DNA from: Patescibacteria group bacterium
Lineage (GTDB): Bacteria; Patescibacteriota; Microgenomatia; Daviesbacterales; UBA10151
Assembly (NCBI GenBank): GCA_038064895.1
Contig: JBBTSA010000005.1
Location: forward strand, 1-50,095
Length of the DNA: 50,095 nt
Direction of reading: 5' to 3'
Shown here one piece after another: positions 1-37,437 of the stretch (position 1 is the stretch's first letter; every line of letters starts with the position of its first letter). A program made the translations under genes and the position numbers. The notes under the pieces are model-generated. The model was not told the origin of the DNA, made no database searches, and saw only the letters and a program-made list of their open reading frames with translations.

Positions 1-396
1 ACCAGAATTATCCAGCAAGCAGCTTCTGGTATTTCTCCATTTGAAGTTACTCCGGCCTATATTGATGGGTTTCCAAACCTTCACCATCCCAATAATCTTT
101 GGGTTGGAGTAAAGGGAGATATAGATAAAGTTCTGCTAATAAGGGAAAAAATAAAAGATGGGCTGGAATATCTACATCTGCCTGTTGATGAAAGAAGATT
201 TGTGCCACACATAACAATAGCTAAATTTAGCACCCCGTTTAAAATAAGCAGAAAACTGGAGGTGGAACTGGAAAAAATCATGGCTCAAGCCTTTGATCCA
301 ATAAGGATATCATCAATCAAGTTATTTGAATCCATTCCCTCCGACGGCTTCCACAAACATAATACTCTAGCAGAAGTTAAATTGAATTCTAATTAA
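1..396 (+). CDS. thpR: RNA 2',3'-cyclic phosphodiesterase (2H family), 5'-truncated by window edge
   Basis: Frame is open from base 1 (TRIIQQAASGISPFEVTPAYIDGFPNLHHPNNLWVGV...DERRFVPHITIAK...), with the second HxT motif and the GFP...LWVG pattern. Confidence 0.88.
   Translation, partial: TRIIQQAASGISPFEVTPAYIDGFPNLHHPNNLWVGVKGDIDKVLLIREKIKDGLEYLHLPVDERRFVPHITIAKFSTPFKISRKLEVELEKIMAQAFDPIRISSIKLFESIPSDGFHKHNTLAEVKLNSN
346..383 (+). repeat. 38-bp direct repeat, copy 1 (3' end of thpR)
   Basis: ggcttccacaaacataatactctagcagaagttaaatt; 36/38 identical to 1140-1177. Confidence 0.95.
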
Positions 397-815
397 TATT
401 TTGTAATGGATTTTACTAGCTTACTTTTAGCTTTCTTTACTAAGTTTTCATCAGCTGTATAAAAAGGAATATTAAGATATTCTGCCAAAGCAATATATGA
501 TCCGTCATAGGATGAAATATTAAGATCAATTGCCATTTTTAATGCAGCCTCAAGAAGCTTTTTTGAATCATACACTATAAAATTAAGCTTTAAAAATGCA
601 CTGTAAAACTCCTGGGCTTTTTCTCCATTAATTCTCCCACTTAAAGTTGCAGATTTTAAAAGGTTATTAACTTCATAAAATAAAAGACTTGGAATATAAA
701 TTTCAATTTCTTTATCTCTAAAATCATCTTTAAGAATATCTGCTTTAAAGCTGGATTCGTCAGCTAGCAACCACTTAGCAACAACTGAGGCATCTATAAC
801 ACAGGATTTTTTCAC
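393..815 (-). CDS. vapC: PIN-domain toxin, VapC family
   Basis: VIDASVVAKW...E...SYD..YIALAE...FYTAD..L acidic PIN motifs. Confidence 0.92.
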   Translation of the reverse strand: MKKSCVIDASVVAKWLLADESSFKADILKDDFRDKEIEIYIPSLLFYEVNNLLKSATLSGRINGEKAQEFYSAFLKLNFIVYDSKKLLEAALKMAIDLNISSYDGSYIALAEYLNIPFYTADENLVKKAKSKLVKSITKY

Positions 816-1099
816 TTAAAATTTCTCAATATCCTATCTGCACGTTCCTGAAGTTCTCTTTTATTTTTTTCTACCAGGGCTTTGGTATTAATTTTACTAC
901 CCTTTAGGCTTTGTCTAAGTTTATCTATTTTATCCATAGCAGTTCTTTGGGGATCTAAATCAGTAATGTAACCAAACCCCTGGACCAAGGCTTCATTAAC
1001 TACTTCTTGTAAAGAAGTATTGGTGCGCAGAGCCAAAAGCTTTGACTGATCTAACAAATCCTTTCTAATTCTAATAGTAGTTCTTACCGTAGTTTGCAT
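812..1099 (-). CDS. Antitoxin, VapB-like (ribbon-helix-helix)
   Basis: VRTTIRIRKDLL N-terminus; 4-nt overlap with the downstream PIN gene. Confidence 0.75.
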   Translation of the reverse strand: MQTTVRTTIRIRKDLLDQSKLLALRTNTSLQEVVNEALVQGFGYITDLDPQRTAMDKIDKLRQSLKGSKINTKALVEKNKRELQERADRILRNFK

Positions 1100-1107
1100 A
1101 TATTTTA

Positions 1108-1136
1108 ACTATAGCATCAAGATGACAAGATGTCAA
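1108..1136 (-). promoter_or_regulatory. Sigma70 promoter of the TA operon, likely leaderless
   Basis: TTGACA-N17-TATAGT, 8 nt before the ATG at 1099. Confidence 0.75.
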
Positions 1137-1139
1137 CAA

Positions 1140-1177
1140 GGCTTCCACAAACATAATACCCTAGCAGAAGTAAAATT
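1140..1177 (+). repeat. 38-bp direct repeat, copy 2 (displaced thpR 3' end)
   Basis: ggcttccacaaacataataccctagcagaagtaaaatt; reads GFHKHNTLAEVKLGL*. Confidence 0.95.
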
Positions 1178-1208
1178 AGGCCTATAGGTTGCAAATTAAC
1201 TACACGTA

Positions 1209-2162
1209 GTGTATGCTTATACGCTTATGGAAAAAATACCTCCGCATGATCATTTAATAATTAAAGGGGTTATTAGTGCCTTATCTAAAGAGAAGGAGCC
1301 TTTAACAGCACTTACCTATTATGATCCTGCTGAACCTTTTCTACCATTTTCAAATACTCGAAGAGGTAGATTTAATGTTGAAGGTAAAATTTTACAAATA
1401 TTAGGCGTGCCCCCTGAACAAATAGCCAACTTAACTTCTAATCAGGTTAGAGCTACACTCGCTGACGGTCTTGTAGGAAGTTCTGTCCTACAAGGAGGAT
1501 TTCTACCTTTCTTTGATAGTAAGAGTTTTGCATTACAGTATCGTAATGGTCCAGAAGTAGCCAGAATACTACGAGATCCTAACACAGCTTTAGTACAAAG
1601 AGCAGGAGAGATAGCAAATTTGGCAGAGTTGGTATCAAGATATTCAGATGAAATAAGCAGCAGTATTGAACCTGCTAAAGGACCTCAAGGAATGCTTTAT
1701 GCCAGTAATGTTTTTGCCTCCAAATTACTGATGGCAGCAGTTGCATACTTCCAAGGGCCTCCTGCGTATAACAAAGACATACGTCATTACGCAAATTTTA
1801 CAGCCCAAGCTGTTATCAGAAACGTCACTCAAGATCTACCTCCCCACATTCAGGATATAGCATGCTGGGCAGCTAATGAGCTTCAGATAATAGGATATGA
1901 CGGACGTATAACTGCCCTGGTACGTGATCCTGTAGAGGGAGTTATAGAAGTTAAAAGTGAGTTATTTTTCCTCCCACTTTTAGTAGATCCAGAAGGACAG
2001 CCATTAACCTTAGGGTATTTAAGAGATTACACAATGAAAGGATGGGAAAGAAACCTTACTCCCGGAGCTATGAATAGGAATAGAAAAAGATTCTTTGGTA
2101 TGGTGGCTGAAAGACGTGCAGAACTCAAGAAAGCTAGAGAGCAATCAAATCCCTCAACCTAA
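1209..2162 (+). CDS. Hypothetical protein (start probably ATG 1227)
   Basis: 317-codon ORF; TTGCAA-N17-TATGCT at 1189-1217; no family recognised. Confidence 0.7.
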   Translation: MYAYTLMEKIPPHDHLIIKGVISALSKEKEPLTALTYYDPAEPFLPFSNTRRGRFNVEGKILQILGVPPEQIANLTSNQVRATLADGLVGSSVLQGGFLPFFDSKSFALQYRNGPEVARILRDPNTALVQRAGEIANLAELVSRYSDEISSSIEPAKGPQGMLYASNVFASKLLMAAVAYFQGPPAYNKDIRHYANFTAQAVIRNVTQDLPPHIQDIACWAANELQIIGYDGRITALVRDPVEGVIEVKSELFFLPLLVDPEGQPLTLGYLRDYTMKGWERNLTPGAMNRNRKRFFGMVAERRAELKKAREQSNPST

Positions 2163-2287
2163 ATTGACTCCAATTTTCCACACCCCCTTTTCCCTAAAGC
2201 TGGGTATTGTTTGTCTTTTGGCCACCAGATTCACGTCTTTTTGTCAATTTAACGTGAATTTATCTGATTTTAGGGATATATTCACGT
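2154..2287 (-). pseudogene. Relic of a Fic-gene paralog: promoter/operator fused to the last ~23 codons
   Basis: 2154-2225 reads VAKRQTIPSFREKGVWKIGVNLG*, like the Fic C-terminus AAKRQTIPAFREKGVWSIGIK*; 2229-2287 aligns without gaps to 4405-4463. Confidence 0.85.
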
Positions 2288-2326
2288 TTTTTGTGGCTAG
2301 CTGAAGTTAAATTGGACTTCTTCTTC

Positions 2327-2355
2327 TTGACAAAAGCTTAACTTTATCCTAACCT
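2327..2355 (+). promoter_or_regulatory. Sigma70 promoter
   Basis: TTGACA-N17-TAACCT. Confidence 0.6.
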
Positions 2356-2368
2356 TATATCAATCATG

Positions 2369-2396
2369 CCGAGGACAAATAGGTCCTTGGTTTTTT
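2369..2396 (+). terminator. Intrinsic terminator-like hairpin in the leader of the 2405 ORF
   Basis: ccgaggac-aaatag-gtccttgg followed by T6. Confidence 0.5.
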
Positions 2397-2404
2397 AAAA
2401 GATT

Positions 2405-2668
2405 ATGCCAGGACCGGAATCAAATCCAGAAACCAGACAAGAAAAAGCCTTCGGTGGAGCCCGGCGAGGTTTACCAAATCTGGGAGCTAGAGGGGATCAG
2501 TTAAGAGATGCTCATTTAAATGGGGGTTTATCTCCAGATACACCAATAGAAAACCTACAAACCTATCTTGGTGTGGATAAACCATTTAGCGGATCCTCAA
2601 GGAATTTGAGAAATCCGCATTTTAAACTACCTAAAACTAAACCAGGAGAAGAAATTACTTTTATATAA
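2405..2668 (+). CDS. Small hypothetical protein
   Basis: 87-aa ORF downstream of a promoter. Confidence 0.5.
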   Translation: MPGPESNPETRQEKAFGGARRGLPNLGARGDQLRDAHLNGGLSPDTPIENLQTYLGVDKPFSGSSRNLRNPHFKLPKTKPGEEITFI

Positions 2669-2690
2669 GTGGAATAGTTTTATATCAATA

Positions 2691-3518
2691 TCAAGTAGGC
2701 AGAAAATAAATGTCCTTATGATACCTTTCATCCGTAAATTGAAACTCACCCCTTCCATCTAGAATAGCCTGATAAGCAATACAGTCACATTTTCCTTTTT
2801 CATTACATACCCAACTCTTGGTTACAATTGCCCCCTTAACCTCTTTTGCCTTTTCTGTAAGCCACTCTAGTCTAGGCTCAAGTGCATCCAAAACAATCTC
2901 TCTTGGTGCATCGTCCCTATCCAAATACCAGAAGCTTGCAGCAGATACACTTTTCCCAAAATTAGCTTCTGCTAAAATTGCATAAATATAAAGCTGCAAA
3001 GGATCTTTTTCATCATTTACTCCTGTTTTAAAATCGCAAACATGCAAAGTTCCGTCCTGCCTTTCTCCTATAAAATCAAAATTCCCCATAAGTATCACAT
3101 CTTCAAAAAGATTAAGTTTTGGAAAATCTATTTTGTGGGTAATTTTTTCAAGCCTTTTTGCATTTTTAAAAAAATTATCAAGCATTTTTATGCCTCTTTT
3201 CCCAAATACAGCTTCATCTTCTCTTGTGGCAAAACCTCCGCGCTTTCCAGAGTATTTAAGCCAAAAATTCCTGAATTTTTTTTCAAGCTGATCATAAGTT
3301 ATTTGTCCATCCATCTCTATGTACCACTTGACACTGTCATGAACAGTTGAACCTAAAGAAAGATAAGGGGATGCAACCTGGATCCTATTACCTGTTTTTT
3401 TATCCCTATAAAGATTTTTAAAATAATAAGTCCTAGGACATTTTAAAAAATCAGATAAAGATGTATAGGAAATAAAAATAGGATTTTTAATATAATCAGT
3501 TTTAGATTTAGTAATCAT
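2691..3518 (-). CDS. PD-(D/E)XK nuclease, RecB/AddB-like
   Basis: ISYTSLSDFLKCPRTYY, GSTVH, GNFD...VCDFKTG, QLYIYA; start 3518 gives an ATGA overlap with the Fic stop. Confidence 0.85.
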   Translation of the reverse strand: MITKSKTDYIKNPIFISYTSLSDFLKCPRTYYFKNLYRDKKTGNRIQVASPYLSLGSTVHDSVKWYIEMDGQITYDQLEKKFRNFWLKYSGKRGGFATREDEAVFGKRGIKMLDNFFKNAKRLEKITHKIDFPKLNLFEDVILMGNFDFIGERQDGTLHVCDFKTGVNDEKDPLQLYIYAILAEANFGKSVSAASFWYLDRDDAPREIVLDALEPRLEWLTEKAKEVKGAIVTKSWVCNEKGKCDCIAYQAILDGRGEFQFTDERYHKDIYFLPT

Positions 3519-4387
3519 TTGATCCCTATACTCCAAACTCCTTTTTCTCTAAAGGCTGGGATCGTCTGACGTTTGGCTGCATTTAAAACTGCTGAAGGAC
3601 TCATATTGGATTTTCTAGCATATTCCATAAGTTCTATAACATCCATACCTTTAAGATAAGCTATTCTTTTGTGTAAAGCTTCTAAGAGGGCTAAAGTAAC
3701 TATACGTTCCATTATTTTGGTATTTTTGCTATCACGGTATGCAACAAAACCACGGTAATAATTTTTCTGTTCTTTATGCCGGATGATAATACCCGGAAAT
3801 CCCAAGCTGTACAATTGGTAGTTTATCAATACACGTCCTATTCTACCGTTACCATCAAGAAATGGATGAATATTCTCAAAATCAAGATGGAATTTGGCAA
3901 TTTTATCGGTAAAGTAGAGCCTAAGATCAGATGAGAATTCAATTAAAATATCTTCAATCCTCCTTTCAATATGCTCCGGAGGCAAAGCTATATGAGTACC
4001 GATTCGGACATACTCATTTTTTTTTCTAAACCTTCCGGCAATACTTTCATCAATATTACCTAAAAACATCTGGTGATAGAGTAAGACTTTTTCTTTTGAT
4101 AAATCTTCTTTCTGCAATTTTCGTATATATTCCATCACCCTAGCTAAATTCTTTGCCTCAAAAACTTCTCTTAAAGAAAGATTGCCTGATAATTCCATCT
4201 CAAGAAGAATTTTTTCAGTTTCTTTCAAGGTTAGGGTTGAATTTTCTATAGCATTTGAGTTATAAACACTTTCCGGAACTTCTGCTTCATCTATTATCTT
4301 AAGCAGGGACTCCTTACCCGATTTTAGACGGTCAAACTCGCTTTTAAGTCTTTCAATTCTATTTTTAATTGGAAGAGGGGTTGCCAT
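3515..4387 (-). CDS. Fic-domain protein with C-terminal HTH-like tail
   Basis: HPFLDGNGRIGR catalytic motif and SNAIEN inhibitory-helix-like motif; start moved to ATG 4387 behind the promoter. Confidence 0.93.
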   Translation of the reverse strand: MATPLPIKNRIERLKSEFDRLKSGKESLLKIIDEAEVPESVYNSNAIENSTLTLKETEKILLEMELSGNLSLREVFEAKNLARVMEYIRKLQKEDLSKEKVLLYHQMFLGNIDESIAGRFRKKNEYVRIGTHIALPPEHIERRIEDILIEFSSDLRLYFTDKIAKFHLDFENIHPFLDGNGRIGRVLINYQLYSLGFPGIIIRHKEQKNYYRGFVAYRDSKNTKIMERIVTLALLEALHKRIAYLKGMDVIELMEYARKSNMSPSAVLNAAKRQTIPAFREKGVWSIGIK

Positions 4388-4394
4388 AGAATTT

Positions 4395-4463
4395 ATTATA
4401 TCAAATTCACTTACTTTTGTCAATTTAGCGTGAATTTATCCCGAAAGTGATCTAAATTCACGT
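4395..4463 (-). promoter_or_regulatory. Fic promoter with three ATTCAC(G) operator-like boxes
   Basis: TTGACA(4423-4418)-N17-TATAAT(4400-4395); attcac/gtgaat boxes at 4405, 4430 and 4456. Confidence 0.75.
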
Positions 4464-4479
4464 ATGCTACAATACAACA

Positions 4480-5553
4480 ATGGTTATTTTAGGTATAGAA
4501 ACTTCCTGTGATGAAACTGGGGCAGCTGTTTTGTCCTTCGACTCCGCTCAGGATAATAAGAACAAAAAAGGTATAAGGATTCTTTCCAACATAGTTGCCT
4601 CATCAGCTTCTATTCAGGCCAAATACGGAGGAGTGATTCCAGAACAAGCAGCTAGAGAACAGATTAAGGCAATAATTCCTGTAATACAGGAAACACTTCG
4701 ACAAGCTCAGTGCAGTCCTGAAGGACTGGCTGCTATAGCGGTAACGTATGGACCAGGATTAATTGGATCACTTTTAGTAGGAGTTGAAACAGCAAAAACT
4801 TTGGCCACGGTCTGGAACAAGCCACTTATTCCTGTAAACCATCTTATTGGTCATTTTTATGCAAACTTTATCCAAGCAGAACACCTCCGAGGTGTGCGTA
4901 AGGTGACAGCTAAAATTCACCTCGGAGGTGAAGCGCCATCTTTCCCATGTATAGGTTTACTAGTCTCAGGTGGCCATACAGATTTGGTGCTATTCACAGA
5001 TCATGGAAAGTATAAATATTTAGGTGGAACAAGAGATGATGCTGCTGGGGAATGTTTTGATAAATGTGCAAGGCTTTTGGGCCTTCCATATCCGGGTGGA
5101 CCTGAAATTTCCAAATTAGCCTTAAAAGGTGATCCAAAGGCTTTTGATCTACCAAGACCCATGATAGATTCAAAAAACTTTGACTTTTCTTTTTCCGGCC
5201 TGAAAACTGCTGTAGCCAAACTCACCTCCGAGGAGTCAAAGCCCACCTCGGAGGTGTTGCCTGGTTTAGCTGCATCCATTGAAGCTGCTATTGTTGATGT
5301 TCTAGTCTCAAAAACTATCAGAGCAGCCCAAGTCTACAAGGTAAAACAAATTATGATCGCAGGCGGTGTAGCTGCCAACAGGAGGTTAGTTCACAGGTTA
5401 CAGGTTACAGTAGGTAGATTGAAAATTAAACTTCATGTCCCCCCGCCAGAGCTCTGTACTGATAATGGTGCCATGATAGCAGCCGCAGGATTCTTTACTA
5501 GTCCCACCAAAGATCCTCTAACCTTACAAGCAGACCCAAACCTTGCGCTCTAA
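4480..5553 (+). CDS. tsaD: tRNA N6-adenosine threonylcarbamoyltransferase
   Basis: ILGIETSCDET, HLIGH, SGGHT, DDAAGE.FDK, FSFSGLKT, CTDNGAMIA. Confidence 0.98.
   Translation: MVILGIETSCDETGAAVLSFDSAQDNKNKKGIRILSNIVASSASIQAKYGGVIPEQAAREQIKAIIPVIQETLRQAQCSPEGLAAIAVTYGPGLIGSLLVGVETAKTLATVWNKPLIPVNHLIGHFYANFIQAEHLRGVRKVTAKIHLGGEAPSFPCIGLLVSGGHTDLVLFTDHGKYKYLGGTRDDAAGECFDKCARLLGLPYPGGPEISKLALKGDPKAFDLPRPMIDSKNFDFSFSGLKTAVAKLTSEESKPTSEVLPGLAASIEAAIVDVLVSKTIRAAQVYKVKQIMIAGGVAANRRLVHRLQVTVGRLKIKLHVPPPELCTDNGAMIAAAGFFTSPTKDPLTLQADPNLAL
4531..4556 (+). repeat. Palindromic element (cttcgactccgctcag family), in frame in tsaD
   Basis: ttgtccttcgactccgctcaggataa = LSFDSAQDN; relatives at 4694, 29508, 29561. 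Confidence 0.8.
4694..4712 (+). repeat. Palindromic element, in frame in tsaD
   Basis: cacttcgacaagctcagtg = TLRQAQC. Confidence 0.75.
4881..4932. repeat. Inverted pair of CACCTCCGAGGTG palindromes in tsaD
   Basis: acacctccgaggtgt ... ttcacctcggaggtgaa. Confidence 0.85.
5223..5256. repeat. Second inverted pair of CACCTCCGAGG palindromes in tsaD
   Basis: cacctccgaggag ... cacctcggaggtg, in a different reading frame from the first pair. Confidence 0.85.
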
Positions 5554-17621: not shown

Positions 17622-17858
17622 TCATTTTACCTTTTCAAGCAACTCAAAATAACGATCTCTTGATATCCCTGCTGTAGTTAAATTAGTTCTAATATGAGTT
17701 ACAGCCACATTGTGAGGACTGGTTTTAATAACAACCGGTCTTCTAACCCCAGGCTTAGTCATCGCGATATGGTCGCCTCTCTTTCTAGAAACCTGGAAAC
17801 TCTCCAGTTCAAAAATCTGGACTAATTTTTTGTAATTCAGGGGAACAATCTTTGGCAT
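17622..17858 (-). CDS. hicA: HicA toxin
   Basis: LVQIFELESFQVSRKRGDHIAM...RPVVI...AGIS.D.YFELL. Confidence 0.88.
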   Translation of the reverse strand: MPKIVPLNYKKLVQIFELESFQVSRKRGDHIAMTKPGVRRPVVIKTSPHNVAVTHIRTNLTTAGISRDRYFELLEKVK

Positions 17859-18122
17859 TTAAATTCCCAACGCCATGCGTTCGGTAACCAAAGGATCATT
17901 ACTACGCCACTCTTTATTCTTAGGCTTGAAACCTGCCTCAATTAAGACATCATCCAAACTTCCCATCCTTTTGCATTCTTCTAAGAATAATGCTACAGCT
18001 TCACGAAGAGACCTTCTGGCCTCTTTTTGCGACTTTCCAAAACTGGAAACATTAAGTTCAGGAGCAACAGCAACATAAAGGTTACCCTCTTTAAATATTT
18101 CAATACGGAAATCTAGTTTCAT
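17859..18122 (-). CDS. hicB: HicB antitoxin (short form)
   Basis: KEG..YVA..PEL.VSSFG.S..EA...L.EA..LFLE. Confidence 0.9.
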   Translation of the reverse strand: MKLDFRIEIFKEGNLYVAVAPELNVSSFGKSQKEARRSLREAVALFLEECKRMGSLDDVLIEAGFKPKNKEWRSNDPLVTERMALGI

Positions 18123-21335: not shown

Positions 21336-21782
21336 TCACACTCCGCTGTACTGTATCGTCCTGAAATGAAACACTTTTTCTCCATCCAGTCTTTCTCCTC
21401 CTTCAAATTTTGCATCCTGATGGATAAATAGAGTATAGGTGGTTCCAAGCTCAAACTCTTTTTTGGGTGTGATTTTTACTGTTTTTCGGTTAAAAGATAG
21501 CTCCAAATTATATTCAATTTCCGGGTCTATCCTGTGTTTGAATTCGGGCGCATTTTCCAGGGGTTTGTTAAATCTAATCTCTACTGTTTCTTTGGCCGAA
21601 ACTATAGATCCTTCCAAAGGATCTGGTTTTGTAGAAACTATTTTAGGAGGCTCATTTTCAGAGATAGCCATAGGGGCTGTGGACTGCTGTGAGCCTTCTG
21701 GAATAGGTTTATCTTCTTGACTTAGGAAAATATAGGCTGCTGTTAAAACAATAATTATTCCTAAAATAATTTTATATTTCAT
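21336..21782 (-). CDS. Membrane-anchored Ig-like (Big_5/SbsA-type) protein
   Basis: PPKIVSTKP...IRFNKPL...ITP...GTTYTL.I...F.F.T. Confidence 0.75.
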   Translation of the reverse strand: MKYKIILGIIIVLTAAYIFLSQEDKPIPEGSQQSTAPMAISENEPPKIVSTKPDPLEGSIVSAKETVEIRFNKPLENAPEFKHRIDPEIEYNLELSFNRKTVKITPKKEFELGTTYTLFIHQDAKFEGGERLDGEKVFHFRTIQYSGV

Positions 21783-21784
21783 AA

Positions 21785-23275
21785 TTAATTCCGAAGGATT
21801 TCCTGAATAGTGTTAAATATTCTAGTTCTTGCATCATCATCTGTAACGTATAACAATTGTGAATGGCCTAGATTAGCCTCTCCCAGATCCAGGATTTCTC
21901 CGAATCCCGGAATGATTGCATACTCCGGTGGGACTAATTTGTCGCCCCTATTCCCAAAACAGAAAATATGAATCCCGTTTCTCTCTTGAAGAAATTTAGC
22001 AGAACGTGTATTAATTGCTTTAGTAAATTCCAAGGCTTCAGGTCTTCCCAATGCTCCAAGATATGCTGTTGCAGGATTTCCAATCTGTGTTTCCAAATCC
22101 AAAATTCCTGCTGATTGTGCATATGTAATAAAATCCTCAAATGGAACACCGTTTACAGGAGAATGTAGTAGTAGCGCCAATCTTGTCCGAGCTAAGTTAT
22201 GGTGGGGTCCGTTTGGCGGTAAAATGCGATCCCAAAAATACCTTAACAAAACATTCCCTCCAAAAGAATGTGCCTCAAAATCTATACGATTGTAATGAGG
22301 GCTTAATTTATCAATCATATCTTCAAGATAATCAACGCTTCTCTCAATAGGTTGATAAGTATGGCTTGGTTCATATGGATAAGGGGACCATATGGGCGGT
22401 GCATTATTTGAAAATTCAATTACCTCACCCCCTGCGTAACTGAATTGGGCAGACATATCATAACCAAGAACAGGTAAATCTGAATATCTAAAAGGTCCGT
22501 CACCTAATCCCATTCCGGGACGGATTCTACTTCCCAAGCCTTCCAGAAAAATTGCACAGGATCTTTCTACAAGAGATGAGGAAGGATTATAATCCCCTCC
22601 CTTCCACATATTCCAGTATCCGTCAACAGTAGAAGGCACAAATTCCTGTATTTCTGTCACATCTCCTCCTCTTATACCACCTGCATCCCTTAACCCTCCT
22701 TCCCCTGTATAGACAACAAGAGCAATTCCTCTACTTGCAAAAACATGAGTATTATATGGCCCCCAGATTTGAGGGTAATAGGAACGTGGTGCCATAGTAT
22801 ATATTTCTCTGGAACTCGGATGATGAATAATAGTATCAGGTGTTTGAGAGAGTGGCATGAAATCTTCTTTTCCCCCCCCACCAGATCTTTTAAACAAGGC
22901 AACGCCGTCTTTTTGAGTAATGGCCAAATTTATACTTCCTCTTACACTGTCCATGCCGCTCAAATAACTTGGCATTGTATATCTTATTAACTGACCCATA
23001 TTTCTTTTTGGTAATGGATCAGATGATGAAGAGTAAAGCGGGGAGAGAATTCTGTTCATCCATTGATGTATACTGTTAACTTCTTCATCAGTTGTTTTAC
23101 CTACCTCAATACTCCTAAAAGCACTGAGAGCCTGTTCTAATGCCGATTGAGCAGAAATGTGGTTTGGCCAGAGGATATTATGGGCAGTGAGGCCTGCAGC
23201 AAAACCAGTTGCCACTCCCCCTAGAAATTGTCTTCTGCTAAGATAAAGATTTAAAATTGGTTCTTGATCTTTCAT
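21785..23275 (-). CDS. Exported protein with C-terminal alpha/beta hydrolase (lipase-like) domain
   Basis: SRRQFLGG N-terminus; AHSFGG nucleophile elbow, HSPVNG, GDKLVP, GHSQLL. Confidence 0.7.
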   Translation of the reverse strand: MKDQEPILNLYLSRRQFLGGVATGFAAGLTAHNILWPNHISAQSALEQALSAFRSIEVGKTTDEEVNSIHQWMNRILSPLYSSSSDPLPKRNMGQLIRYTMPSYLSGMDSVRGSINLAITQKDGVALFKRSGGGGKEDFMPLSQTPDTIIHHPSSREIYTMAPRSYYPQIWGPYNTHVFASRGIALVVYTGEGGLRDAGGIRGGDVTEIQEFVPSTVDGYWNMWKGGDYNPSSSLVERSCAIFLEGLGSRIRPGMGLGDGPFRYSDLPVLGYDMSAQFSYAGGEVIEFSNNAPPIWSPYPYEPSHTYQPIERSVDYLEDMIDKLSPHYNRIDFEAHSFGGNVLLRYFWDRILPPNGPHHNLARTRLALLLHSPVNGVPFEDFITYAQSAGILDLETQIGNPATAYLGALGRPEALEFTKAINTRSAKFLQERNGIHIFCFGNRGDKLVPPEYAIIPGFGEILDLGEANLGHSQLLYVTDDDARTRIFNTIQEILRN

Positions 23276-23280
23276 TAATT

Positions 23281-23724
23281 TTAAAATGTTGTCAAAGGTG
23301 CTTTAAAAATAATCTTATAAGGATTAGCCATATAAACTCCTTGAGTGCTCCTTGCTGAGAGGATTGTTAAAGTATATTCTTGATCTATAACCCACCAGGG
23401 ACCTTCTGCTTTTGGTTTGAAGATGACATTTTGGCCATTAAAGTTTACTGGCACATCAATAGGTGGCTCAATACTATATTCAAATGTCTTTGGATCGACT
23501 GCTTGAGTAAAAGTGATCATGATGGGTGTTACATAAGTAATCTGCATAAGATCTGATACAGGGGGTTTGATGGATTTGACAGCAAATATTTGGCTTTGAG
23601 TAGCTGTAGTGGGGATTGCTTGTGGCTGATTGGATAGACTGCCATCTTTAGGTCTTGTTGTTATAAATAAGAGAATGGCAAAGATAATAAGCAGTATAAC
23701 AATAATAAGCAGTGTTTTATGCAT
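23281..23724 (-). CDS. Membrane-anchored Ig-like protein
   Basis: TM then PIMITFTQAVD...IEP...FKP...YTLTI. Confidence 0.7.
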   Translation of the reverse strand: MHKTLLIIVILLIIFAILLFITTRPKDGSLSNQPQAIPTTATQSQIFAVKSIKPPVSDLMQITYVTPIMITFTQAVDPKTFEYSIEPPIDVPVNFNGQNVIFKPKAEGPWWVIDQEYTLTILSARSTQGVYMANPYKIIFKAPLTTF

Positions 23725-23726
23725 AA

Positions 23727-25679
23727 TTATTCACTTACACACAAACCTAATGACTCTGGGTCCAGCCAGCCGTTGTTTTCACCATAGTTAACAAGCTTTC
23801 GACCCCCCTCGTCACTCCCTATATTAACATGTAGATGAGGAAAGCCTGTATTAGCTATTGTGAGAACTGGGTCGCCTGAATGGTATCCTCTCCCCAAAGG
23901 TGGAGAGATGACAATTGGATCCACATGGATAAAATAAACCAGCCAGACATTGCCATCAACGTCTGTATTAAATACTCGGATATAACCGCCTCCTTCTTCG
24001 GGGGAGAGGGGACCAAAATCAAGACCTGAATTATGAAACCATGCTGAACTCTTACCGTTTATAAAGGGTAATTTAACTTGTTCTCCAGGGCTTGCATTTA
24101 TATCAATGGAGTGTGCTCTTCTTAATTTAGGTATTTCGTTCGGATCAGTAATGAGAACTATGCGGTCTTTAGTGTGGGGATTACTGCACCAGCCGTAATT
24201 TGATCCACAATGTCCTCTCTCAATTGGTTGAGTCCCACGACATTTATTTACATTAAATCTATTATCTGACATAAATGAACCGCAGCTGATAACCCTAGTG
24301 CCATCTAGAGGACAAGAGACAACTGCTCCGCCAGCAACAGGTGGGGATGTTGCAATAGGTGCCAATGCCCCCGGGCCTGAAGGGACAAGTTTTGAGTACC
24401 AGTCTTTTATATTTTTAGGGAAGAACTTATTTGCTAAAAAGCTGCAAGGAGACAGTTTTGATTCGCTATACATGCACATAAAGTTAGCAAACTTATCATT
24501 TCCAAACCTGGAAAAGTTATTAAACAAGCACTTTAAGGATAAATCAATATCTGCTGTTGGTTGTCCCGGAGCACACCCCAGGGGGTCGCTATAGTTTGGT
24601 ACGCCTTGGGCACCGGTTTCTTCAATCCAAAGGGTCAAGACAAAAGCTGGATTCCACCCATTGTTAATGCTTTGCTGAACAATTGTATCCCAGTTTGCAA
24701 GTTTTGCATTAGGCCAAAAACTTTTGACTTGATTTTTAATAACATCAGGATTGGAAACAGATATACTGGAATTTCGAAACGGGATTTTGTAATCTAAAGC
24801 TTGGCCTTGTCCAACTTGGGCAGGGGCTGGTTGGGTTCCCGGGGTTTGTGACGGGGCAAAACCTGTAAGAATACCTGCTGAAAGGAACAATCCTAAGAAA
24901 ATAAAAACCAATAATCTGCCGGAGATAGCTATCCCGCGCCCCCTGGTCATTTGAGTGCCAATATCTGCTAAAGCATAGCCTCCTCTCAAAAGAGTCCCTC
25001 CCAAAAACTTCCCTCCTCCTCCGGCAATACCACCTAACAGACCACCACCGCCTCTGCCAATGCCTCCAAGCATGCCGGAAAGATTAGTACCAGCTCTTGT
25101 AAGGCCCTTTTTTAACCCAATGCCAGTTTTATTGCCTACTTCTTTTACTACCTTTTCTCCAATGATATTCATGTTTTTATTGGCAATAAATAATTTTGAT
25201 CCTGGTGTTTCTTCTGGAGTATGGGGAATATCATGAATTACTATCTTAGGTGCAGCGTGAATAGAAGGAGTTGAGGGAAGATTTGGAATGCCTTGGTCAG
25301 CCATAGTGGATGAAGGTTCTCCAACTGGAGGCTGCTCAGCTTGTTCGCTCGTCTGTGCCTCTTGAGTCGGCTGTTCGCTTACCTCTTCTCCTGTTGATTT
25401 TTTTTCTAAAATTACCCTAAACTCTTCTTGTTGTTTTTGAGTAAATCCCGCCTTTGCCAGAAAATCTTCTTTCTTGCGAGGATCTTTTAGGTATTGAATT
25501 AAAGTATTAATTAGAGTGTTGTCGTCCTTAAACTGTTCTGCCTGAAATTGCGGGAGTTTTCTAAGCGAGGCAAGGGAGTTTGCTCTGATGGAGTAAGGAA
25601 TATTGAAATCCGGTTTGTAGTTAACATCCTTTATTGCCTGGAAAAGTGTCTTGAGATTTTGAAGATCCCTTAAGTCCAT
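23727..25679 (-). CDS. Membrane protein with lysozyme-like and M23-like peptidase domains (putative T4SS wall hydrolase)
   Basis: Gly-rich linker, TM, NPAFVLTLWIEETG, HSIDI, IH, PHLH. Confidence 0.65.
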   Translation of the reverse strand: MDLRDLQNLKTLFQAIKDVNYKPDFNIPYSIRANSLASLRKLPQFQAEQFKDDNTLINTLIQYLKDPRKKEDFLAKAGFTQKQQEEFRVILEKKSTGEEVSEQPTQEAQTSEQAEQPPVGEPSSTMADQGIPNLPSTPSIHAAPKIVIHDIPHTPEETPGSKLFIANKNMNIIGEKVVKEVGNKTGIGLKKGLTRAGTNLSGMLGGIGRGGGGLLGGIAGGGGKFLGGTLLRGGYALADIGTQMTRGRGIAISGRLLVFIFLGLFLSAGILTGFAPSQTPGTQPAPAQVGQGQALDYKIPFRNSSISVSNPDVIKNQVKSFWPNAKLANWDTIVQQSINNGWNPAFVLTLWIEETGAQGVPNYSDPLGCAPGQPTADIDLSLKCLFNNFSRFGNDKFANFMCMYSESKLSPCSFLANKFFPKNIKDWYSKLVPSGPGALAPIATSPPVAGGAVVSCPLDGTRVISCGSFMSDNRFNVNKCRGTQPIERGHCGSNYGWCSNPHTKDRIVLITDPNEIPKLRRAHSIDINASPGEQVKLPFINGKSSAWFHNSGLDFGPLSPEEGGGYIRVFNTDVDGNVWLVYFIHVDPIVISPPLGRGYHSGDPVLTIANTGFPHLHVNIGSDEGGRKLVNYGENNGWLDPESLGLCVSE

Positions 25680-25694
25680 ATAGTTAGAGTATCA

Positions 25695-27419
25695 TTAAAC
25701 ATTTTGTCTTGCCAATATCTCTTGAGGACTTGATGTAATCAGTTGATGTTCCCAGCCCGATGCTAAAATTTTCATTGCTGCATGGGTACTGCCTGCAAAA
25801 AATAAACCTTCTCCTACCCCTTCTGAAAGCAGAAGTCTTTGTTCTCCTTCCGAAAGATTAAAAAGTTGGGCTAAAAGATCAATTGATGCGGGTGCTTGCT
25901 TAAGGAGTACTTGTATGGATGAATTGGAAATAATTTCCTTGCCCCGCTCGGTTGCTAAAAAATCCTCAACATCCTGTGTTATGGTTGTCAGTCCTAAATA
26001 ATACTTGCGGGCTCTTTTTGCCATGTCTACCAAAAAGTCGGCCGAGTCCGGAAACCTCATTAGATACCAGGCCTCATCAACAATAAGAATTCTTTTTTTT
26101 AGTTTGCTGCGGACTTTTGTCCAAATAAAATCTAAAATCATATGAATTGCCAAAGGCCGTAGTTGATCCGGAAGGTCTCTTACCGAAAAAACAGTAAATG
26201 AGTTTGTTATATCAATATTGGAATGAGCAGAAAAAATACCTGCCAAAGAACCCTTGATGAATCTCTCAAGCCTTGCTGATAGTTCCCCTGCAACTTGCTC
26301 CTCCATACCAATAAGGACTTTATACAGGTCCTCCATAAGAGGCGGGGTTTTAATTTGTGTTTTAGGATCATCAGTTATGCCCTTAAGCGCATAAGTTTGT
26401 TTTAAGGCTCTGTCCAGGATAGCTGCCTCTTGAGCAGATAAATTACCTAAAACGAGCTTTAAAAAAGAGGTTAAAGACAAAATTTTTCTGCCTAACTCAT
26501 TTTCTCCTGTTACAGAAGTTCCTGACATGTCAAAAGGATTAATTTTGGCAGGAGAAGAGGTAGAGAAGTTAACAAATTCACCGCCTACTGCTTGTGTCAA
26601 AGGTAAATATTCTTGTTCAGGATCAATGATTAATATTTCAGTACCAAACATGAGTGACCTTAAAGCCTCAAGTTTAACTAAAAAACTTTTCCCACTGCCG
26701 CTTTTGCCAAAATAACAGGCATTAGCATTCTCCAGGGAGAACCTGTCAAAAAGAATTAAAGAATCATTATGCTCATTTATGCCATACATGATTCCTTCAT
26801 TTGCAGTAAGTTCCGATGATGCAAAAGGGAATGTTGTTGCCAATGATGTAGTATCCATATTGTGAGTTAAGTTTAAAAGATCCGAACCTATAGGCAGTGT
26901 GGATTTGAACCCGTCTTCCATTTGAAGGGTTGTGGGTCTGGCAGTTATTGAAAGAGAAGCCAGTGTTGATTCAACAAGCTTGGAAGTGTTTCGTAATTCA
27001 TCCAAATCTTTGGCAGGTACGCTTATATAAAGAGCAAATTGAAAAAATCTCTCCGTGCCCCTTACCAGCTCATCCTGCAAAGCTCGTGCGTCTTCCAGGG
27101 TAACCTGTACAGCAGGATCCATAGCTTTTCCTCTTTCAAGATCAGTTTGGATTGTTGCCTCCATTTCAGCAATTTTTCTTTTTAAATCATCGAGCACGCC
27201 TGCTGATTCTGACGGGTATATAAAGATGGATATAAAGAGCGAGCGGTCAAAAGAGATTAAGGGTTCCAGCCAGTTAGGTTCAACAAATCTTGGATATTTT
27301 GAAACAAAATATGTTCTTAAAAAACGATTATTAATTCGGACATGATTAAAATCAACCTCTATTTCTGAAGGAGCAAGAACATCAGAGATAGTTAATTGAG
27401 GAGTAGTTGGGTCTTTCAT
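25695..27419 (-). CDS. virB4: VirB4-like ATPase
   Basis: GKSGSGKS, IIDPEQEY, INPFD, LIVDEAW, KRARKY, ITQDV.DF, GEGL. Confidence 0.93.
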   Translation of the reverse strand: MKDPTTPQLTISDVLAPSEIEVDFNHVRINNRFLRTYFVSKYPRFVEPNWLEPLISFDRSLFISIFIYPSESAGVLDDLKRKIAEMEATIQTDLERGKAMDPAVQVTLEDARALQDELVRGTERFFQFALYISVPAKDLDELRNTSKLVESTLASLSITARPTTLQMEDGFKSTLPIGSDLLNLTHNMDTTSLATTFPFASSELTANEGIMYGINEHNDSLILFDRFSLENANACYFGKSGSGKSFLVKLEALRSLMFGTEILIIDPEQEYLPLTQAVGGEFVNFSTSSPAKINPFDMSGTSVTGENELGRKILSLTSFLKLVLGNLSAQEAAILDRALKQTYALKGITDDPKTQIKTPPLMEDLYKVLIGMEEQVAGELSARLERFIKGSLAGIFSAHSNIDITNSFTVFSVRDLPDQLRPLAIHMILDFIWTKVRSKLKKRILIVDEAWYLMRFPDSADFLVDMAKRARKYYLGLTTITQDVEDFLATERGKEIISNSSIQVLLKQAPASIDLLAQLFNLSEGEQRLLLSEGVGEGLFFAGSTHAAMKILASGWEHQLITSSPQEILARQNV

Positions 27420-28129
27420 CCTTCCTCCAGTTCCTCCACCACAAAAGGATGGGTTTTTGATATGCTTGGCCGGGTTATTGGTGGAGGCATGGAGGGTGGA
27501 GGCTCTTTTTTGGGAGTCTTAACTACCTGGGGACTTTTTAATGTGGCGGGCTGGGTTTGTCTTGAATGGATCGGGGCAAAACTTGCTTCATTGTATATGT
27601 CAAAAAAAAGTTCTGTTAGTTTATCGGAAGTTAACTGGGTTGCTTTAAGCCCGGCTCTTGCAAGCTGCCTTATTACCTGATCACGTCTTGGCAAAAGAGT
27701 GGTTTTAATCTTTTGTCTAAGTGTTTCTCTGCTTGTTATAAGACCAAGCTCCAGTTTAAAAAGAGGAATAACAACATAGAATTTTTTATCCAAAACCTCC
27801 CTTTCCTTTATAAGGGTTTGGATAAAAAGTCTGTAATTTACCATCATTTTGGAAAGCAGGGTATTAGTTTGAGTTTGTTGGGCTTTATCTAAAAGATTTA
27901 AATATGAGGAGATATTTAGCCTTTTTGAGTGAATCATAATTTGAATACTGAAAGATAGCGAATTTAGCATTTGAGCAAAGCTTACGATAATTCCAAGCTG
28001 TTCTCTTTCAGATAAAAGTCCAAAATTTACAGCAGAGACCTGCAGCACAAGTGCGCCGCCGCCGGTCTTTAATAGCACCATGTCATCTACTATATCTTTA
28101 ATCGGTATATGATCCTGCGTTGTATTCAT
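27416..28129 (-). CDS. Protein resembling the VirB4/TraC N-terminal region
   Basis: VSAVNFGLLSE.EQ..I...F..MLNSL; lies between prgI and virB4. Confidence 0.75.
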   Translation of the reverse strand: MNTTQDHIPIKDIVDDMVLLKTGGGALVLQVSAVNFGLLSEREQLGIIVSFAQMLNSLSFSIQIMIHSKRLNISSYLNLLDKAQQTQTNTLLSKMMVNYRLFIQTLIKEREVLDKKFYVVIPLFKLELGLITSRETLRQKIKTTLLPRRDQVIRQLARAGLKATQLTSDKLTELFFDIYNEASFAPIHSRQTQPATLKSPQVVKTPKKEPPPSMPPPITRPSISKTHPFVVEELEEG

Positions 28130-29196
28130 ACCCTGGCTGCTTCTTTTGCTGTGATCATAAGAGGCGGTAAAACCTCTCCTGTTAATTCAATTTGCAAAAC
28201 ATCAAAACTAAAATTTTCTTTCTCAAGCTCCAAAGTATATACGCCATTAGGCAAGGGAGTGGAGCCTGTGAATTGACCCAGTCTGTTAGTTTTTAACGCT
28301 CTGACAGGTAAACCTTCCTTATCATGAATTACCGCAATCACTCCTTCCAGATAGTTTCCGCTGTTGTCTTTTGTAATACCGTTTATTACATTAGGGAAAG
28401 TAGTTAAAGCCACCTGCTGGGGTTTTGGTTTAGTGAGCATGACAATCTTTACGACCTTGGGCATCTCTAACGGCTTAGCTCTCTCTTTCTCGGGGCCTGC
28501 AATAACATCAAGCTGTCCCTTTATTTGGGATGCCTCCATCATCAACTTTTGCAAATTTGAGAGGATATCATTTACTTGATTTGTATAATCAATAGGTATG
28601 GGTGTTGGTTTTTGAGCCTCGGATCTAATCTGGCTTAAAGTTCTTTCTGTCTGGATAATCTGCATCTGCAGGTTTTGTGCCTCTCTTGCCAGATCAACTG
28701 TTTTTTTAAGTTCATCCGGGGTCGGAAGGTCGGAAGGAGCAGAGGTGGGAGGGATGGATGTGGGAAATGGGACAGCCGAAGGGGTAGAGATTTGAGTCGG
28801 CTGCTCGCCTCGTGAAGCCTCGCCGAAGGTGGGCGAAGCGGGTAAACTTGAAAGATAAGTTATATACCGGCTTTGGAACAGCGGATCCTCTTTGTAAATC
28901 TTATTATTTTTACGCCATACCCTTTTTGTTGGGGAGTATATTGTTTTTAGGAATGCTGCCAGCCAATAATCCAAAGGCCTTGAGCCTACCCCCAAAAAGG
29001 CAAAAGCAGCGCCTAAAGAAGCAAAGATAAGAATCAAGGGCCAGGCCAAAAGAGGGTAAGGTGCTGCAAAAAATACAAAGATAATGTAGGCTAAAGTTGA
29101 ACCGGTTGCCAAATAGACAAACTGTTTTAAGGTCATGTCTCCAATTAGCCTGAACTCAAATGATGAGATATTTTGCGGGATAGGGTGGGGTTCCAT
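28126..29196 (-). CDS. prgI: PrgI-family (VirB3-like) protein with C-terminal beta-sandwich domain
   Basis: HPIPQNISSFEFRLIGDMTLKQF, two TMs, RPLD.W, P..RVW. Confidence 0.85.
   Translation of the reverse strand: MEPHPIPQNISSFEFRLIGDMTLKQFVYLATGSTLAYIIFVFFAAPYPLLAWPLILIFASLGAAFAFLGVGSRPLDYWLAAFLKTIYSPTKRVWRKNNKIYKEDPLFQSRYITYLSSLPASPTFGEASRGEQPTQISTPSAVPFPTSIPPTSAPSDLPTPDELKKTVDLAREAQNLQMQIIQTERTLSQIRSEAQKPTPIPIDYTNQVNDILSNLQKLMMEASQIKGQLDVIAGPEKERAKPLEMPKVVKIVMLTKPKPQQVALTTFPNVINGITKDNSGNYLEGVIAVIHDKEGLPVRALKTNRLGQFTGSTPLPNGVYTLELEKENFSFDVLQIELTGEVLPPLMITAKEAARV
28803..28842. repeat. Nested palindromic element, in frame in prgI
   Basis: Minus strand cccgcttcgcccaccttcggcgaggcttcacgaggcgagc = PASPTFGEASRGE. 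Confidence 0.8.
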
Positions 29197-29346
29197 AAAA
29201 TAGGTTATACAGCGTGAAAAACTACAAGTCTAGTAGTAAAAAATGGATCAATTCAGAATAATTCAGAACAAATCAGCTAAAATCAGATAGATCGGACAAT
29301 AGATAGATCAGAAGTATCAGATAGACCGGAATGTTATACTAAAAGT

Positions 29347-29427
29347 ATGATTTATGATGTTACTGACCTAGATGTTTATAATCGTGCTATAGGAGCATTA
29401 GATCTGGTTTATCCGGCCTCTCCATAA
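29347..29427 (+). pseudogene. Truncated four-helix-bundle gene flanked by oppositely oriented short repeats
   Basis: TATACT-N6-ATG; MIYDVTDLDVYNRAIGALDLVYPASP*; (a)tcaga/tcgga repeats upstream, tccga/tctga repeats downstream. Confidence 0.6.
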
Positions 29428-29507
29428 TCCGATACACTGATTTCATCCGATCTTTTCTGAAGTTTCTGAACTTACTCTCGTCAGGATTCTATCAGAATTA
29501 AATCAAG

Positions 29508-29580
29508 CAGTTCGACTTCGCTCACTGTAAACTTGTGGACAAAAGATCAGATTTTGAAAATCCTGAGCATAGTCGAAGGA
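29508..29580. repeat. Inverted pair of ttcgac..gctca palindromic elements
   Basis: cagttcgacttcgctcactg and tcctgagcatagtcgaagga. Confidence 0.8.
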
Positions 29581-29645
29581 TTGACAGCTGATCTTTGGAA
29601 GTTCTATGCTAAAAATGCCATAGAATTTCCTGAAAGGAAAAATAT

Positions 29646-33659: not shown

Positions 33660-33663
33660 TACT

Positions 33664-35481: not shown

Positions 35482-35520
35482 ATCTTAAGAGTAAAACAAA
35501 ATGATTAACTTTTGCAAGTT

Positions 35521-35844
35521 TTATGGTTGGCACCAGTCTTTACCTCCTGGCACAATTATGCATAGAGCTCTTATATTAAAAACCGTAACCTCTATTCCTG
35601 TAAATGTTTGGATAAGCTGTAGAATAATCCAGGCTATTGCTAAAAATAATATCCCTAAAAGAGCCCATGTTACTGTTAAATGGGCCGCTTGTATTGCTTT
35701 TGGTTCCCCACCTGAAGTTATATATTTTATTCCTGCAAATATAAGCAGAACAAGGGTAGCTATAAATCCCAAGCCAACAACAACAGAAACTAAAGAAGAA
35801 AAAACCTGTTCAATTTCAGCTAAACCTGCAGGGTCAGGGCCCAT
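35521..35844 (-). CDS. VirB2/TrbC-like pilin
   Basis: LIFAGIKYITSGGEPKAIQAAH.T.TWALLG. Confidence 0.85.
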   Translation of the reverse strand: MGPDPAGLAEIEQVFSSLVSVVVGLGFIATLVLLIFAGIKYITSGGEPKAIQAAHLTVTWALLGILFLAIAWIILQLIQTFTGIEVTVFNIRALCIIVPGGKDWCQP

Positions 35845-35846
35845 AT

Positions 35847-36239
35847 TTATGGAGCTGGAGTAGGTATTTTGAAATCAAGGACATTAAAGCCCAGGAACTG
35901 GCCTGCTACCTGGAATAGTGCAAAAGCTATTGCCAAAATAGCAAGACCGACTAAAGCATTAATAATTCTTCCCCTTGCTTTTCCAACGGCATCCTTGTCT
36001 CCGCCTGATGTTATCCACTCAAATGCTCCCCAAACAAGCATAAAAAGTACAACAATGACTGCTACGATAAAAAGCAAAGCCAGAGTATTTTGAATAAAAT
36101 TACCCAAAGTACCAAAGCCTACAGGCTTGCCGTCAATTACAGGTCTTTCTATTTTAATTTGTCCAGGATCTTGAGCAAAAGCTGGCATACCAGTAAGAAG
36201 ATATAAAAAGGTAGAGGCTATGGAAACTATTTTTTTCAT
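35847..36239 (-). CDS. VirB2/TrbC-like pilin (candidate major pilin)
   Basis: Signal peptide; LVWGAFEWITSGGDKDAVGKARGRIINALVG; own TTGACA-N18-TAAGAT promoter at 36278-36249. Confidence 0.88.
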   Translation of the reverse strand: MKKIVSIASTFLYLLTGMPAFAQDPGQIKIERPVIDGKPVGFGTLGNFIQNTLALLFIVAVIVVLFMLVWGAFEWITSGGDKDAVGKARGRIINALVGLAILAIAFALFQVAGQFLGFNVLDFKIPTPAP

Positions 36240-36287
36240 TGCATCTTAATCTTACTCATAGAGAAATTTACTTGTCAAGTCCTTACT

Positions 36288-37114: not shown

Positions 37115-37425
37115 CAAAATGGTAGTCCTCCTTTCGCCGGAAAAATCTGTCCCGCATATGTAGCTATAGTATAAGCCATTACTGTTACCAAAAGCCCAAT
37201 TAAAGCCCATTTTATTTTTTCCCTGGCTTTTGCCAGGTTTTCCTTTTCCCCGCTGGCAAAAATATATGCCCAGGCTCCCCAGATAAGATAATAAAAGCTT
37301 AAAAAAGCGGCAATAAATATGGAAATATTTAAAAGGCCGGAAACAAGAGCTCCCAAGTCTGGAATCTGTGGAACAGGATTATCTATATCCTCACCGCCGG
37401 GAAGTTTTAAAGCCAATTTGTTCAT
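37114..37425 (-). CDS. VirB2/TrbC-like pilin
   Basis: LIWGAWAYIFASGEKENLAKAREKIKWALIG. Confidence 0.85.
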   Translation of the reverse strand: MNKLALKLPGGEDIDNPVPQIPDLGALVSGLLNISIFIAAFLSFYYLIWGAWAYIFASGEKENLAKAREKIKWALIGLLVTVMAYTIATYAGQIFPAKGGLPF

Positions 37426-37437
37426 AGCGACTCTCTT

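Follow-up and report, generated by a model that had tools for sequence, protein, structure and literature searches.

A predicted VapBC-type toxin–antitoxin operon between two thpR gene ends at a gene-gain hotspot of an ultra-small groundwater bacterium

The thpR gene end and its duplicate

The DNA analysed here (the window) is the opening 50,095 bases of contig C5 from a 1.0-Mb, 41-contig assembly of an ultra-small groundwater bacterium of the candidate phyla radiation (CPR). Its source genome is labelled G000, other genomes of the family G###, related loci and metagenome contigs L###, and public runs X#. The contig starts inside thpR, a housekeeping RNA-repair gene whose first ~60 codons are absent from the assembly. 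Behind it stands a small toxin–antitoxin (TA) cassette, held between two same-strand copies of the thpR end. The features of the region, with open reading frames (ORFs) named after their family matches, are as follows:

1-396, + strand: thpR (RNA 2',3'-cyclic phosphodiesterase), 3' two-thirds, functional copy (PF13563, 33 bits; PF02834, 25.1 bits)
346-384, + strand: repeat copy 1, the last 13 conserved thpR codons, reading GFHKHNTLAEVKL; functional end
385-396, + strand: new thpR tail, NSN-stop; its stop overlaps that of the convergent PIN gene
393-815, - strand: vapC-like PIN-domain toxin gene, 140 aa (PF01850, 41.2 bits, cut-off 23.6)
812-1099, - strand: vapB-like antitoxin gene, 95 aa, which shares 4 nt with the PIN gene (sole family match below cut-off: DUF6364, 22.7 versus 27.3)
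1108-1136, - strand: promoter-like site of the cassette, TTGACA-17 nt-TATAGT with TG, 3 nt from copy 2 (11 of 12 consensus positions; a consensus match only)
1140-1178, + strand: repeat copy 2, displaced thpR end with no gene body attached; probably the former resident end, by analogy with L107, G008 and L138
1179-1187, + strand: old tail, GL-stop, read in frame after the displaced copy
1209-2162, + strand: 317-aa ORF of no family, in the variable gap (no Pfam or NCBIfam match)
2691-3536, - strand: PD-(D/E)XK nuclease gene, conserved convergent partner of thpR (PF12705, 63 bits)

An earlier note on this DNA had described a 38-bp duplication around a vapBC-like operon. It was found at 346-383 and 1140-1177, with 36 of 38 positions identical (36 of 39 when one base is added, i.e. 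346-384 and 1140-1178). None of 100 dinucleotide shuffles yielded two matches, and no third copy exists in the 1.0-Mb assembly at three mismatches or fewer. Both copies are read in frame up to the same Lys-Leu and then part, ending in NSN-stop for copy 1 and GL-stop for copy 2; the note had given these endings correctly as VKLNSN-stop and VKLGL-stop. It was also right that both mismatches (ACT/ACC and GTT/GTA) are synonymous, and the 39th nucleotide adds a third synonymous one (TTG/TTA). The TIGR02258 profile stops at residue 128 of 131, on the very Lys-Leu that closes the repeat, which places both of the swapped tails beyond the conserved fold. Without its ~60 N-terminal codons the thpR of the window scores 58.5 bits on that profile (cut-off 65.7), as against 121.5 for the full-length orthologue of G008. 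Orthologues with 53-77% identity are present in 34 of the 36 genomes of the same family among 60 sampled relatives, all of which belong to other genera. Neither Rfam families nor tRNAs were detected in window positions 1-5000. Upstream of the repeat, at 66-87, contigs of three other runs show eight differences within 22 nt of thpR, the rest of 1-2700 being nearly identical; the cluster resembles a short tract exchanged by recombination between alleles of thpR.

To judge from its family matches and layout, the cassette is a predicted, self-contained VapBC-type type II TA operon with its own putative promoter. Small ORFs homologous to the 95-aa ORF precede PIN homologues in G034, G011, G073, G118, G062 and G105. 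Relatives of the PIN (VapC) protein at 52-62% identity occur at different loci in six further genera of the family, the nearest of them behind trxB-like or dnaJ-like genes (names given from reading the translations) of other genera. A search of one-genome-per-species contigs for close VapC relatives gave 100 pattern matches, none of which was confirmed. No recombinase gene lies inside the cassette or less than 45 kb away among the 49 window ORFs, which bears out the earlier statement that no integrase or transposase is adjacent: the only recombinase, of the large serine type, is at 46633-48282, and no tyrosine recombinase is present in the window.

Recurrence behind thpR and at other gene ends

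Recurrence of the layout was assessed by scanning 96 genomes of the family with a degenerate pattern for the conserved thpR end, at two mismatches or fewer; the reversed pattern, used as a control, gave no match in any of the 96. Same-strand copies on one contig were found in genomes of four different genera: two in G000, four in G008, two in G073 and two in G117. In metagenome contigs the pattern matched 87 stretches in 78 loci and added arrays in L138, L152 (the same as L155 and L168) and L160, as well as G008-like ones in L134 and L167. Behind thpR, an array has between one and three cassettes, and a same-strand copy of the thpR end closes each of them. An intact gene, then a same-strand 3'-end copy, with foreign DNA between them, is the arrangement of the window and also of G008, G073, G117, L138, L152 and L160. 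The cargo differs from one array to the next:

G008, cassette 1: HicB-like
G008, cassette 2: asparaginase, ankyrin, glutaminase and a 513-aa ORF
G008, cassette 3: RHH and PIN
G073: RHH and RelE/ParE-like (toxin matches below cut-off)
G117: three ORFs including Bro-N; PIN and Phd after the second copy
L152: HicB, HicA and a 70-aa ORF
L138: a 279-aa ORF of no family

Pfam searches of the arrays revealed no recombinase gene in any thpR cassette. A few matches were set aside. Those of G084 are the overlapping ends of two contigs and not an array; the second matches of G098 (unrelated, two mismatches) and L101, together with the L149 match, were due to chance or unrelated; and the copy of L116, 13 nt from the contig start and with an internal stop, was left unclassified.

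The occupancy of the site was determined for 58 distinct related loci holding both thpR and a downstream backbone gene. Unoccupied loci number 31 (24 with a backbone gene at most 150 bp from thpR and seven with an abutting, diverged PD-(D/E)XK gene), and in such relatives the PD-(D/E)XK gene is often within ~15 bp of the thpR stop. The other 27 are occupied, with gaps of up to 7.7 kb. Comparison of the thpR loci of relatives, which the earlier note had proposed, thus does yield one-copy sites without insert. The occupied gaps hold 74 ORFs, among which there is one IS1595 transposase and no integrase or resolvase; TA-type domains are frequent (PIN, MazE, RelB, YafQ, DUF433/DUF5615). In this family the thpR and PD-(D/E)XK genes normally meet tail to tail, and their junction repeatedly gains small self-contained genes, mostly type II TA pairs. 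The partner gene is marked as well: fragments of its 3' end (16-26 codons) are duplicated beside cassettes in G008 (L037), G014 (L039) and L162, and in G014 a MazE and PIN pair sits between such a fragment and the full gene. As for thpR itself, the genes of L039 (G014; 464-1072) and L040 (G018) have a ~14-codon in-frame insert exactly at the Gly/Phe boundary where displaced copies start.

Comparison of G000 with itself, with targets checked by Pfam and ARAGORN, brought out the same layout elsewhere in the genome. At seven or more further sites a small cassette, its cargo mostly a TA pair, lies between duplicates of 30-100 nt that belong to the end or start of a gene or to a tRNA gene:

uvrB 3' region: 40-nt repeat; DUF4258 and MqsA-like; four synonymous and no non-synonymous differences
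trxB-like end: three copies; RelB and YafQ-like, and a cyclase gene
fmt end: 32 nt, 100% identical; PIN
tRNA-Leu: 79 nt, 100% identical; MazE and Doc
tRNA-Tyr: 46 nt; MazF and Fic; compensatory stem changes
5' end of a gene: 38 nt; DUF5678 and aspartyl protease
upstream of a UvrD-type helicase gene: non-coding repeat

The coordinates of these sites are C10:13673-14426, C14:50785-53047, C2:33565-34315, C39:3952-4826, C38:1982-3888, C10:239739-240464 and C7:8378-11111. Since the same layout is met at many targets with target-specific repeats, the duplicated unit must be set by the target and not by the cassette; inspection by eye of the cassette edges at the different targets disclosed no common motif. 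The trxB-like site has its own parallel in other genomes. In L195 (G011) and L197 (G118) the closest relatives of the window vapBC stand behind a trxB-like gene and are followed by a second RHH and PIN pair; both pairs of G011 terminate in a 20-nt stub (698-717 and 1457-1476 of L195) reading as the trxB-like end, i.e. the same hotspot as the three-copy site of G000.

What the earlier note had missed is this recurrence: the window is one case of a hotspot that recurs in several genera and, within G000, at several other gene ends. The event is therefore an ordinary one for the lineage and not a singular accident.

Identity of the displaced ends and route of insertion

The displaced copies carry a clear mark of their past. 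When eight of them were compared with the functional copy of their own genome, 38 codon differences were synonymous and 11 non-synonymous (P ≤ 0.01 for each copy against random substitutions, which are expected to be mostly non-synonymous), and the three differences in the window are all synonymous (P = 0.003). This bias argues that the two copies belonged to separate lineages and were still functional gene ends while they diverged, and that they were not generated by duplication of the target in situ. Judged by their codons, the functional end and the displaced one represent two alleles, so that incoming DNA would have brought its own gene end; the earlier suggestion that the cassette came with the thpR end of another lineage, and without a recombinase of its own, is supported by this allelic difference. 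Three displaced copies have non-synonymous changes inside the otherwise invariant HNTLAE motif, as expected of dead copies released from selection.

Which of the two ends was there before is indicated by L107. In this locus the native thpR end is joined directly to the flank that follows the displaced copy in G008 (copy 4) and in L138 (copy 2), which makes it the empty-site allele for both sister arrays. The downstream copy is therefore the old resident end there, and the functional upstream end arrived with the insert. For the window the same assignment is made by analogy, because the relatives offer no equivalent of the 317-aa ORF that comes after copy 2: tblastn found no match to it behind thpR in 116 related loci. 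In the lineage of the window, a thpR end of another allele, a new 3-codon tail and a promoter-bearing vapBC operon are now in place; the dead fragment 794 bp downstream is probably made up of the gene's former final 13 codons and the tail that went with them.

Gene ends displaced in this manner are reminiscent of several published systems. At rhs loci, laterally acquired DNA displaces C-terminal tips, and homologous recombination with circular intermediates is proposed in the relevant part of the study (Jackson et al. 2009, PMC2935791). There, as here, an intact gene has partial copies of its 3' region behind it on the same strand, each a former end displaced by DNA bringing a new end and cargo, and the arrays grow by repetition. 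The rhs gene, in that account, encodes a polymorphic toxin whose swapped tip is the payload and comes with an immunity gene, and its fragments vary in length, whereas thpR encodes a housekeeping phosphodiesterase, the exchanged tail amounts to 2-3 residues beyond the conserved fold, the TA payload is unrelated and seven of nine displaced copies have one common edge. Effector-immunity modules of Vibrio cholerae's type VI secretion system (T6SS) undergo sequential displacement, for which the corresponding section of the paper proposes homology-facilitated illegitimate recombination (HFIR) and draws a likeness to integron arrays (Kirchberger et al. 2017, PMC5361080). The common points with that description are a homology anchor on one side and a non-homologous join on the other, older genes moved downstream and no integrase; the T6SS anchor is a conserved upstream region and whole immunity genes are retained, whereas behind thpR only a 39-nt gene-end stub remains. 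Restriction-modification (RM) units inserted with long target duplication form a third case (Furuta, Abe and Kobayashi 2010, PMC2853133, where Nobusato et al. 2000 is cited on the subject). In the passages devoted to them they have direct repeats of more than 30 bp, no mobility gene and a mechanism given as unknown, and are found mostly in naturally competent species. They too are addiction-type units, with repeats that may overlap the 3' end of a neighbouring gene. Their repeats, in the examples given, are near-identical target copies (44-47 of 46-47), as opposed to the distinct alleles, TA cargo and repeatedly struck site, across genera, that we observed.

The two remaining comparisons concern integrase-dependent systems. 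Integrase islands at tRNA or gene 3' ends, as presented in Islander, have a regenerated target and a displaced fragment at their ends and accrete in tandem, as do the thpR arrays; unlike them, the thpR site has no integrase in ~27 occupied loci, and its elements go down to 0.4-0.75 kb. Vibrio superintegrons contain TA cassettes with their own promoter, according to the part of the review that treats them (Van Melderen and Saavedra De Bast 2009, PMC2654758). Compact units in arrays, each closed by a repeat, and promoter-bearing TA units are shared with thpR; the differences are that IntI and attI are absent and that the repeat is a coding gene end without hairpin, defined by the target gene.

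On balance, we are inclined to view the window as a 3'-end displacement scar at a gene-gain hotspot, made without any element-encoded recombinase. Incoming DNA with a thpR end and cargo would recombine into the resident gene end. The left side would be joined by homology inside thpR and the right side at the start of the conserved FHxHNTLAE block, by one of three possible routes: the incoming piece could already hold a displaced copy of the thpR end, pairing with the resident end, so that the copies would serve as portable homology arms; a circular intermediate with one copy could be involved, as in the Rhs model; or the end could be joined illegitimately after DNA uptake, as in the HFIR model. 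The TA pair would then resist loss by addiction, which would explain the dominance of TA pairs among the cargo. In favour of a homology-driven route are the lack of a recombinase, the many targets in one genome, the long copies and the structure of G008 copy 3. Two thpR copies are indeed much longer than the others, at 115 and 177 nt. The latter is copy 3 of G008, the first 85 nt of which are identical to the resident gene and the remainder diverged, and it is joined to a 3' fragment of the PD-(D/E)XK gene; such a trace is what one would expect if a fragment reaching across both gene ends had recombined by homology.

Several observations weigh against that view. The 5' edge of seven of the nine displaced copies is within ~6 nt of the same Gly-Phe codons, in different genera and with different cargo, and G008 and L138 share it although they are demonstrably separate events; this common insertion point is the one feature that ordinary homology models leave unexplained. 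Random illegitimate joins would scatter, so that a shared 5' edge better fits a site-specific enzyme or a single founding event. Adjacent copies in G008, G073, L138 and L152 are identical at 25-30 of 39 positions, with perfect runs of 5-12 nt, not enough for RecA to pair them efficiently. On a profile of native ends every displaced copy reaches 41 bits or more, and the range from 14 to 41 bits is empty: there are no decayed copies, and fast turnover or constraint is therefore required. Finally, neither an empty allele of the same species as the window nor a donor was found among the sampled relatives, the run contigs and the metagenome contigs. The run contigs come from Logan (four public runs of two studies) and were compared with window positions 1-2700; they contain no empty or circular junction, a result that is no proof of absence, as rare variants are dropped by such contigs, and the exact empty-site pattern has no match in metagenome contigs. 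The excision via the repeats that the earlier note envisaged is thus unsupported. Cassettes travelling with both copies as portable arms may reconcile an inherited edge with homology, but the origin of new cargo between the arms would not be explained.

It is this sharp boundary that keeps alive a rather unlikely alternative, in which the enzyme is site-specific and acts in trans. The ~39-nt thpR end would be an attachment (att) site, and small circles with a mimic of it would be integrated Campbell style, in series, by a recombinase encoded elsewhere. Integron cassettes, integrase-less, att-flanked derivatives of islands (cis-mobilizable elements, CIMEs) and Xer-dependent modules are analogues. 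Besides the 5' edge that seven of nine have in common across genera and cargos, the displaced copies also have a common 3' edge, after the Leu codon. Trans-mobilisation would also suit copies too diverged for RecA pairing, cassettes that are self-contained and tightly packed with tandem accretion of up to three in G008, and the tRNA duplications at two other G000 cassettes, which resemble classic att sites. Each of the four array genomes has two or three tyrosine and one or two large serine recombinase genes elsewhere. None of these could be tied to the thpR-end site, and tblastn of the two tyrosine and two large serine recombinases of G000 gave no match in the 116 related loci. A recombinase is also absent from, and from beside, every cassette, as well as from the 74 gap ORFs of relatives. 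At least seven targets in one 1-Mb genome would demand several specificities from about four enzymes, and the same TA family occurs at different targets with target-specific repeats. The two far longer copies do not fit a fixed att site, and the viral contigs contain no match to the thpR-end pattern. Both strands of both window copies fold more weakly than shuffles (z = +1.2 to +1.9), and no hairpin or inverted-repeat structure is present. The run contigs, as said, hold no circular or empty junction. A dif/Xer site was considered and dropped: the likeness to the E. coli dif sequence, compared informally, looked poor, and the locus is ~18 kb from dnaA, where a dif site is not expected.

A wider version of trans-mobilisation, which we offer as speculation with little likelihood of being correct in full, is that the ends of thpR, trxB, uvrB, fmt and tRNA genes are docking sites of undescribed minimal mobile cassettes of CPR bacteria. 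These would be promoter-bearing TA units of 0.4-0.8 kb, with a coding mimic of the last ~13 codons as attachment site, inserted at a fixed nucleotide by a recombinase in trans, and would form integron-like arrays without an integron.

It is improbable that the cassettes are what is left of integrase-bearing islands at the thpR end, reduced by genome reduction to an addictive TA pair and att scars. The genomes of the family are strongly reduced (0.6-1.6 Mb), TA pairs resist deletion through post-segregational killing, and gene-end direct repeats with a regenerated target and displaced fragment are the standard island signature, as Islander presents it. No integrase remnant was found in the ~27 occupied loci or in the seven arrays; the cassettes are without exception within 3-40 nt of both repeats, a fit that separate deletions would seldom produce; and non-TA cargo is also present. 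Considerably less probable still is a true long target duplication in situ, whereby staggered breaks ~39 nt apart would be filled in around the inserted fragment, as proposed for RM units. Duplications of 30-100 nt around addiction modules without a mobility gene do fit the RM description, in so far as the paper deals with such modules (PMC2853133), and two of the G000 repeats, those of fmt and tRNA-Leu, are perfect. Neutral decay predicts mostly non-synonymous changes; the excess of synonymous ones at thpR (38 versus 11) and at uvrB (4 versus 0), and the compensatory stem changes at tRNA-Tyr, lead us to disfavour in-situ duplication for the thpR arrays on the strength of their codons.

We give virtually no credence to an assembly or binning artefact merging reads of two strains, which a 41-contig assembly, a contig beginning within thpR and a relative with a G008-like thpR in the same sample might suggest, since in run X2, another sample, a single contig spans 1-2700 with 10 differences, none in the repeats or cassette, contigs of X4 and X5, runs of the second study, bridge both junctions with no differences (88-724 and 873-1202; 51-713 and 1054-1282), and the same architecture exists in unrelated assemblies. 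X1 covers 1-2700 in two pieces, 1-952 and 976-2700. The artefact that the earlier note had named as a possible refutation is thereby set aside, the junctions having the support of contigs from four runs and two studies.

Other features of the window and biological meaning

Beyond the cassette, the backbone of the window runs thpR, variable stretch, PD-(D/E)XK nuclease, Fic, tsaD and valS, with rnpA, yidC, dnaA and dnaN at 16-21 kb. The PD-(D/E)XK and Fic genes are themselves flanked by a 39-nt direct repeat, 87% identical (2226-2264 and 4402-4440), which includes an inverted repeat and the first Fic codons; the block has unrelated flanks in other metagenome contigs, and the repeat may be a common operator. 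Just upstream of dnaA, at 17622-18122, a HicA-like ORF (match below cut-off) and an adjoining 87-aa ORF form another TA-like pair. A type IV secretion-like cluster occupies 21336-38547, with a TraG-type ATPase, a PrgI-like protein, four ORFs with pilin domains of type IV secretion systems and large ORFs of no family. Close to the far end, the ORF of the large serine recombinase (46633-48282, - strand) overlaps at its 3' end the tRNA-Ser genes at 46614-46700 and 46705-46792 (+ strand); this region, 46614-48282, may be the edge of an integrated element.

No paper was found that links thpR with toxin-antitoxin genes and integration. The literature on direct repeats flanking TA genes and on TA hotspots of CPR bacteria, searched at the level of listings, yielded no description of TA cassettes with displaced housekeeping-gene ends in these bacteria. 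The displacement scar itself is a known kind of recombination footprint.

The common insertion point, being the same in several genera, provides a handle for testing whether a trans-acting recombinase is involved. In uncultivated bacteria, the dead stubs make gene-gain hotspots easy to search for. To conclude, the thpR locus shows how a very small genome poor in integrases acquires TA genes while its essential genes stay intact: the new DNA comes with a gene end of its own.

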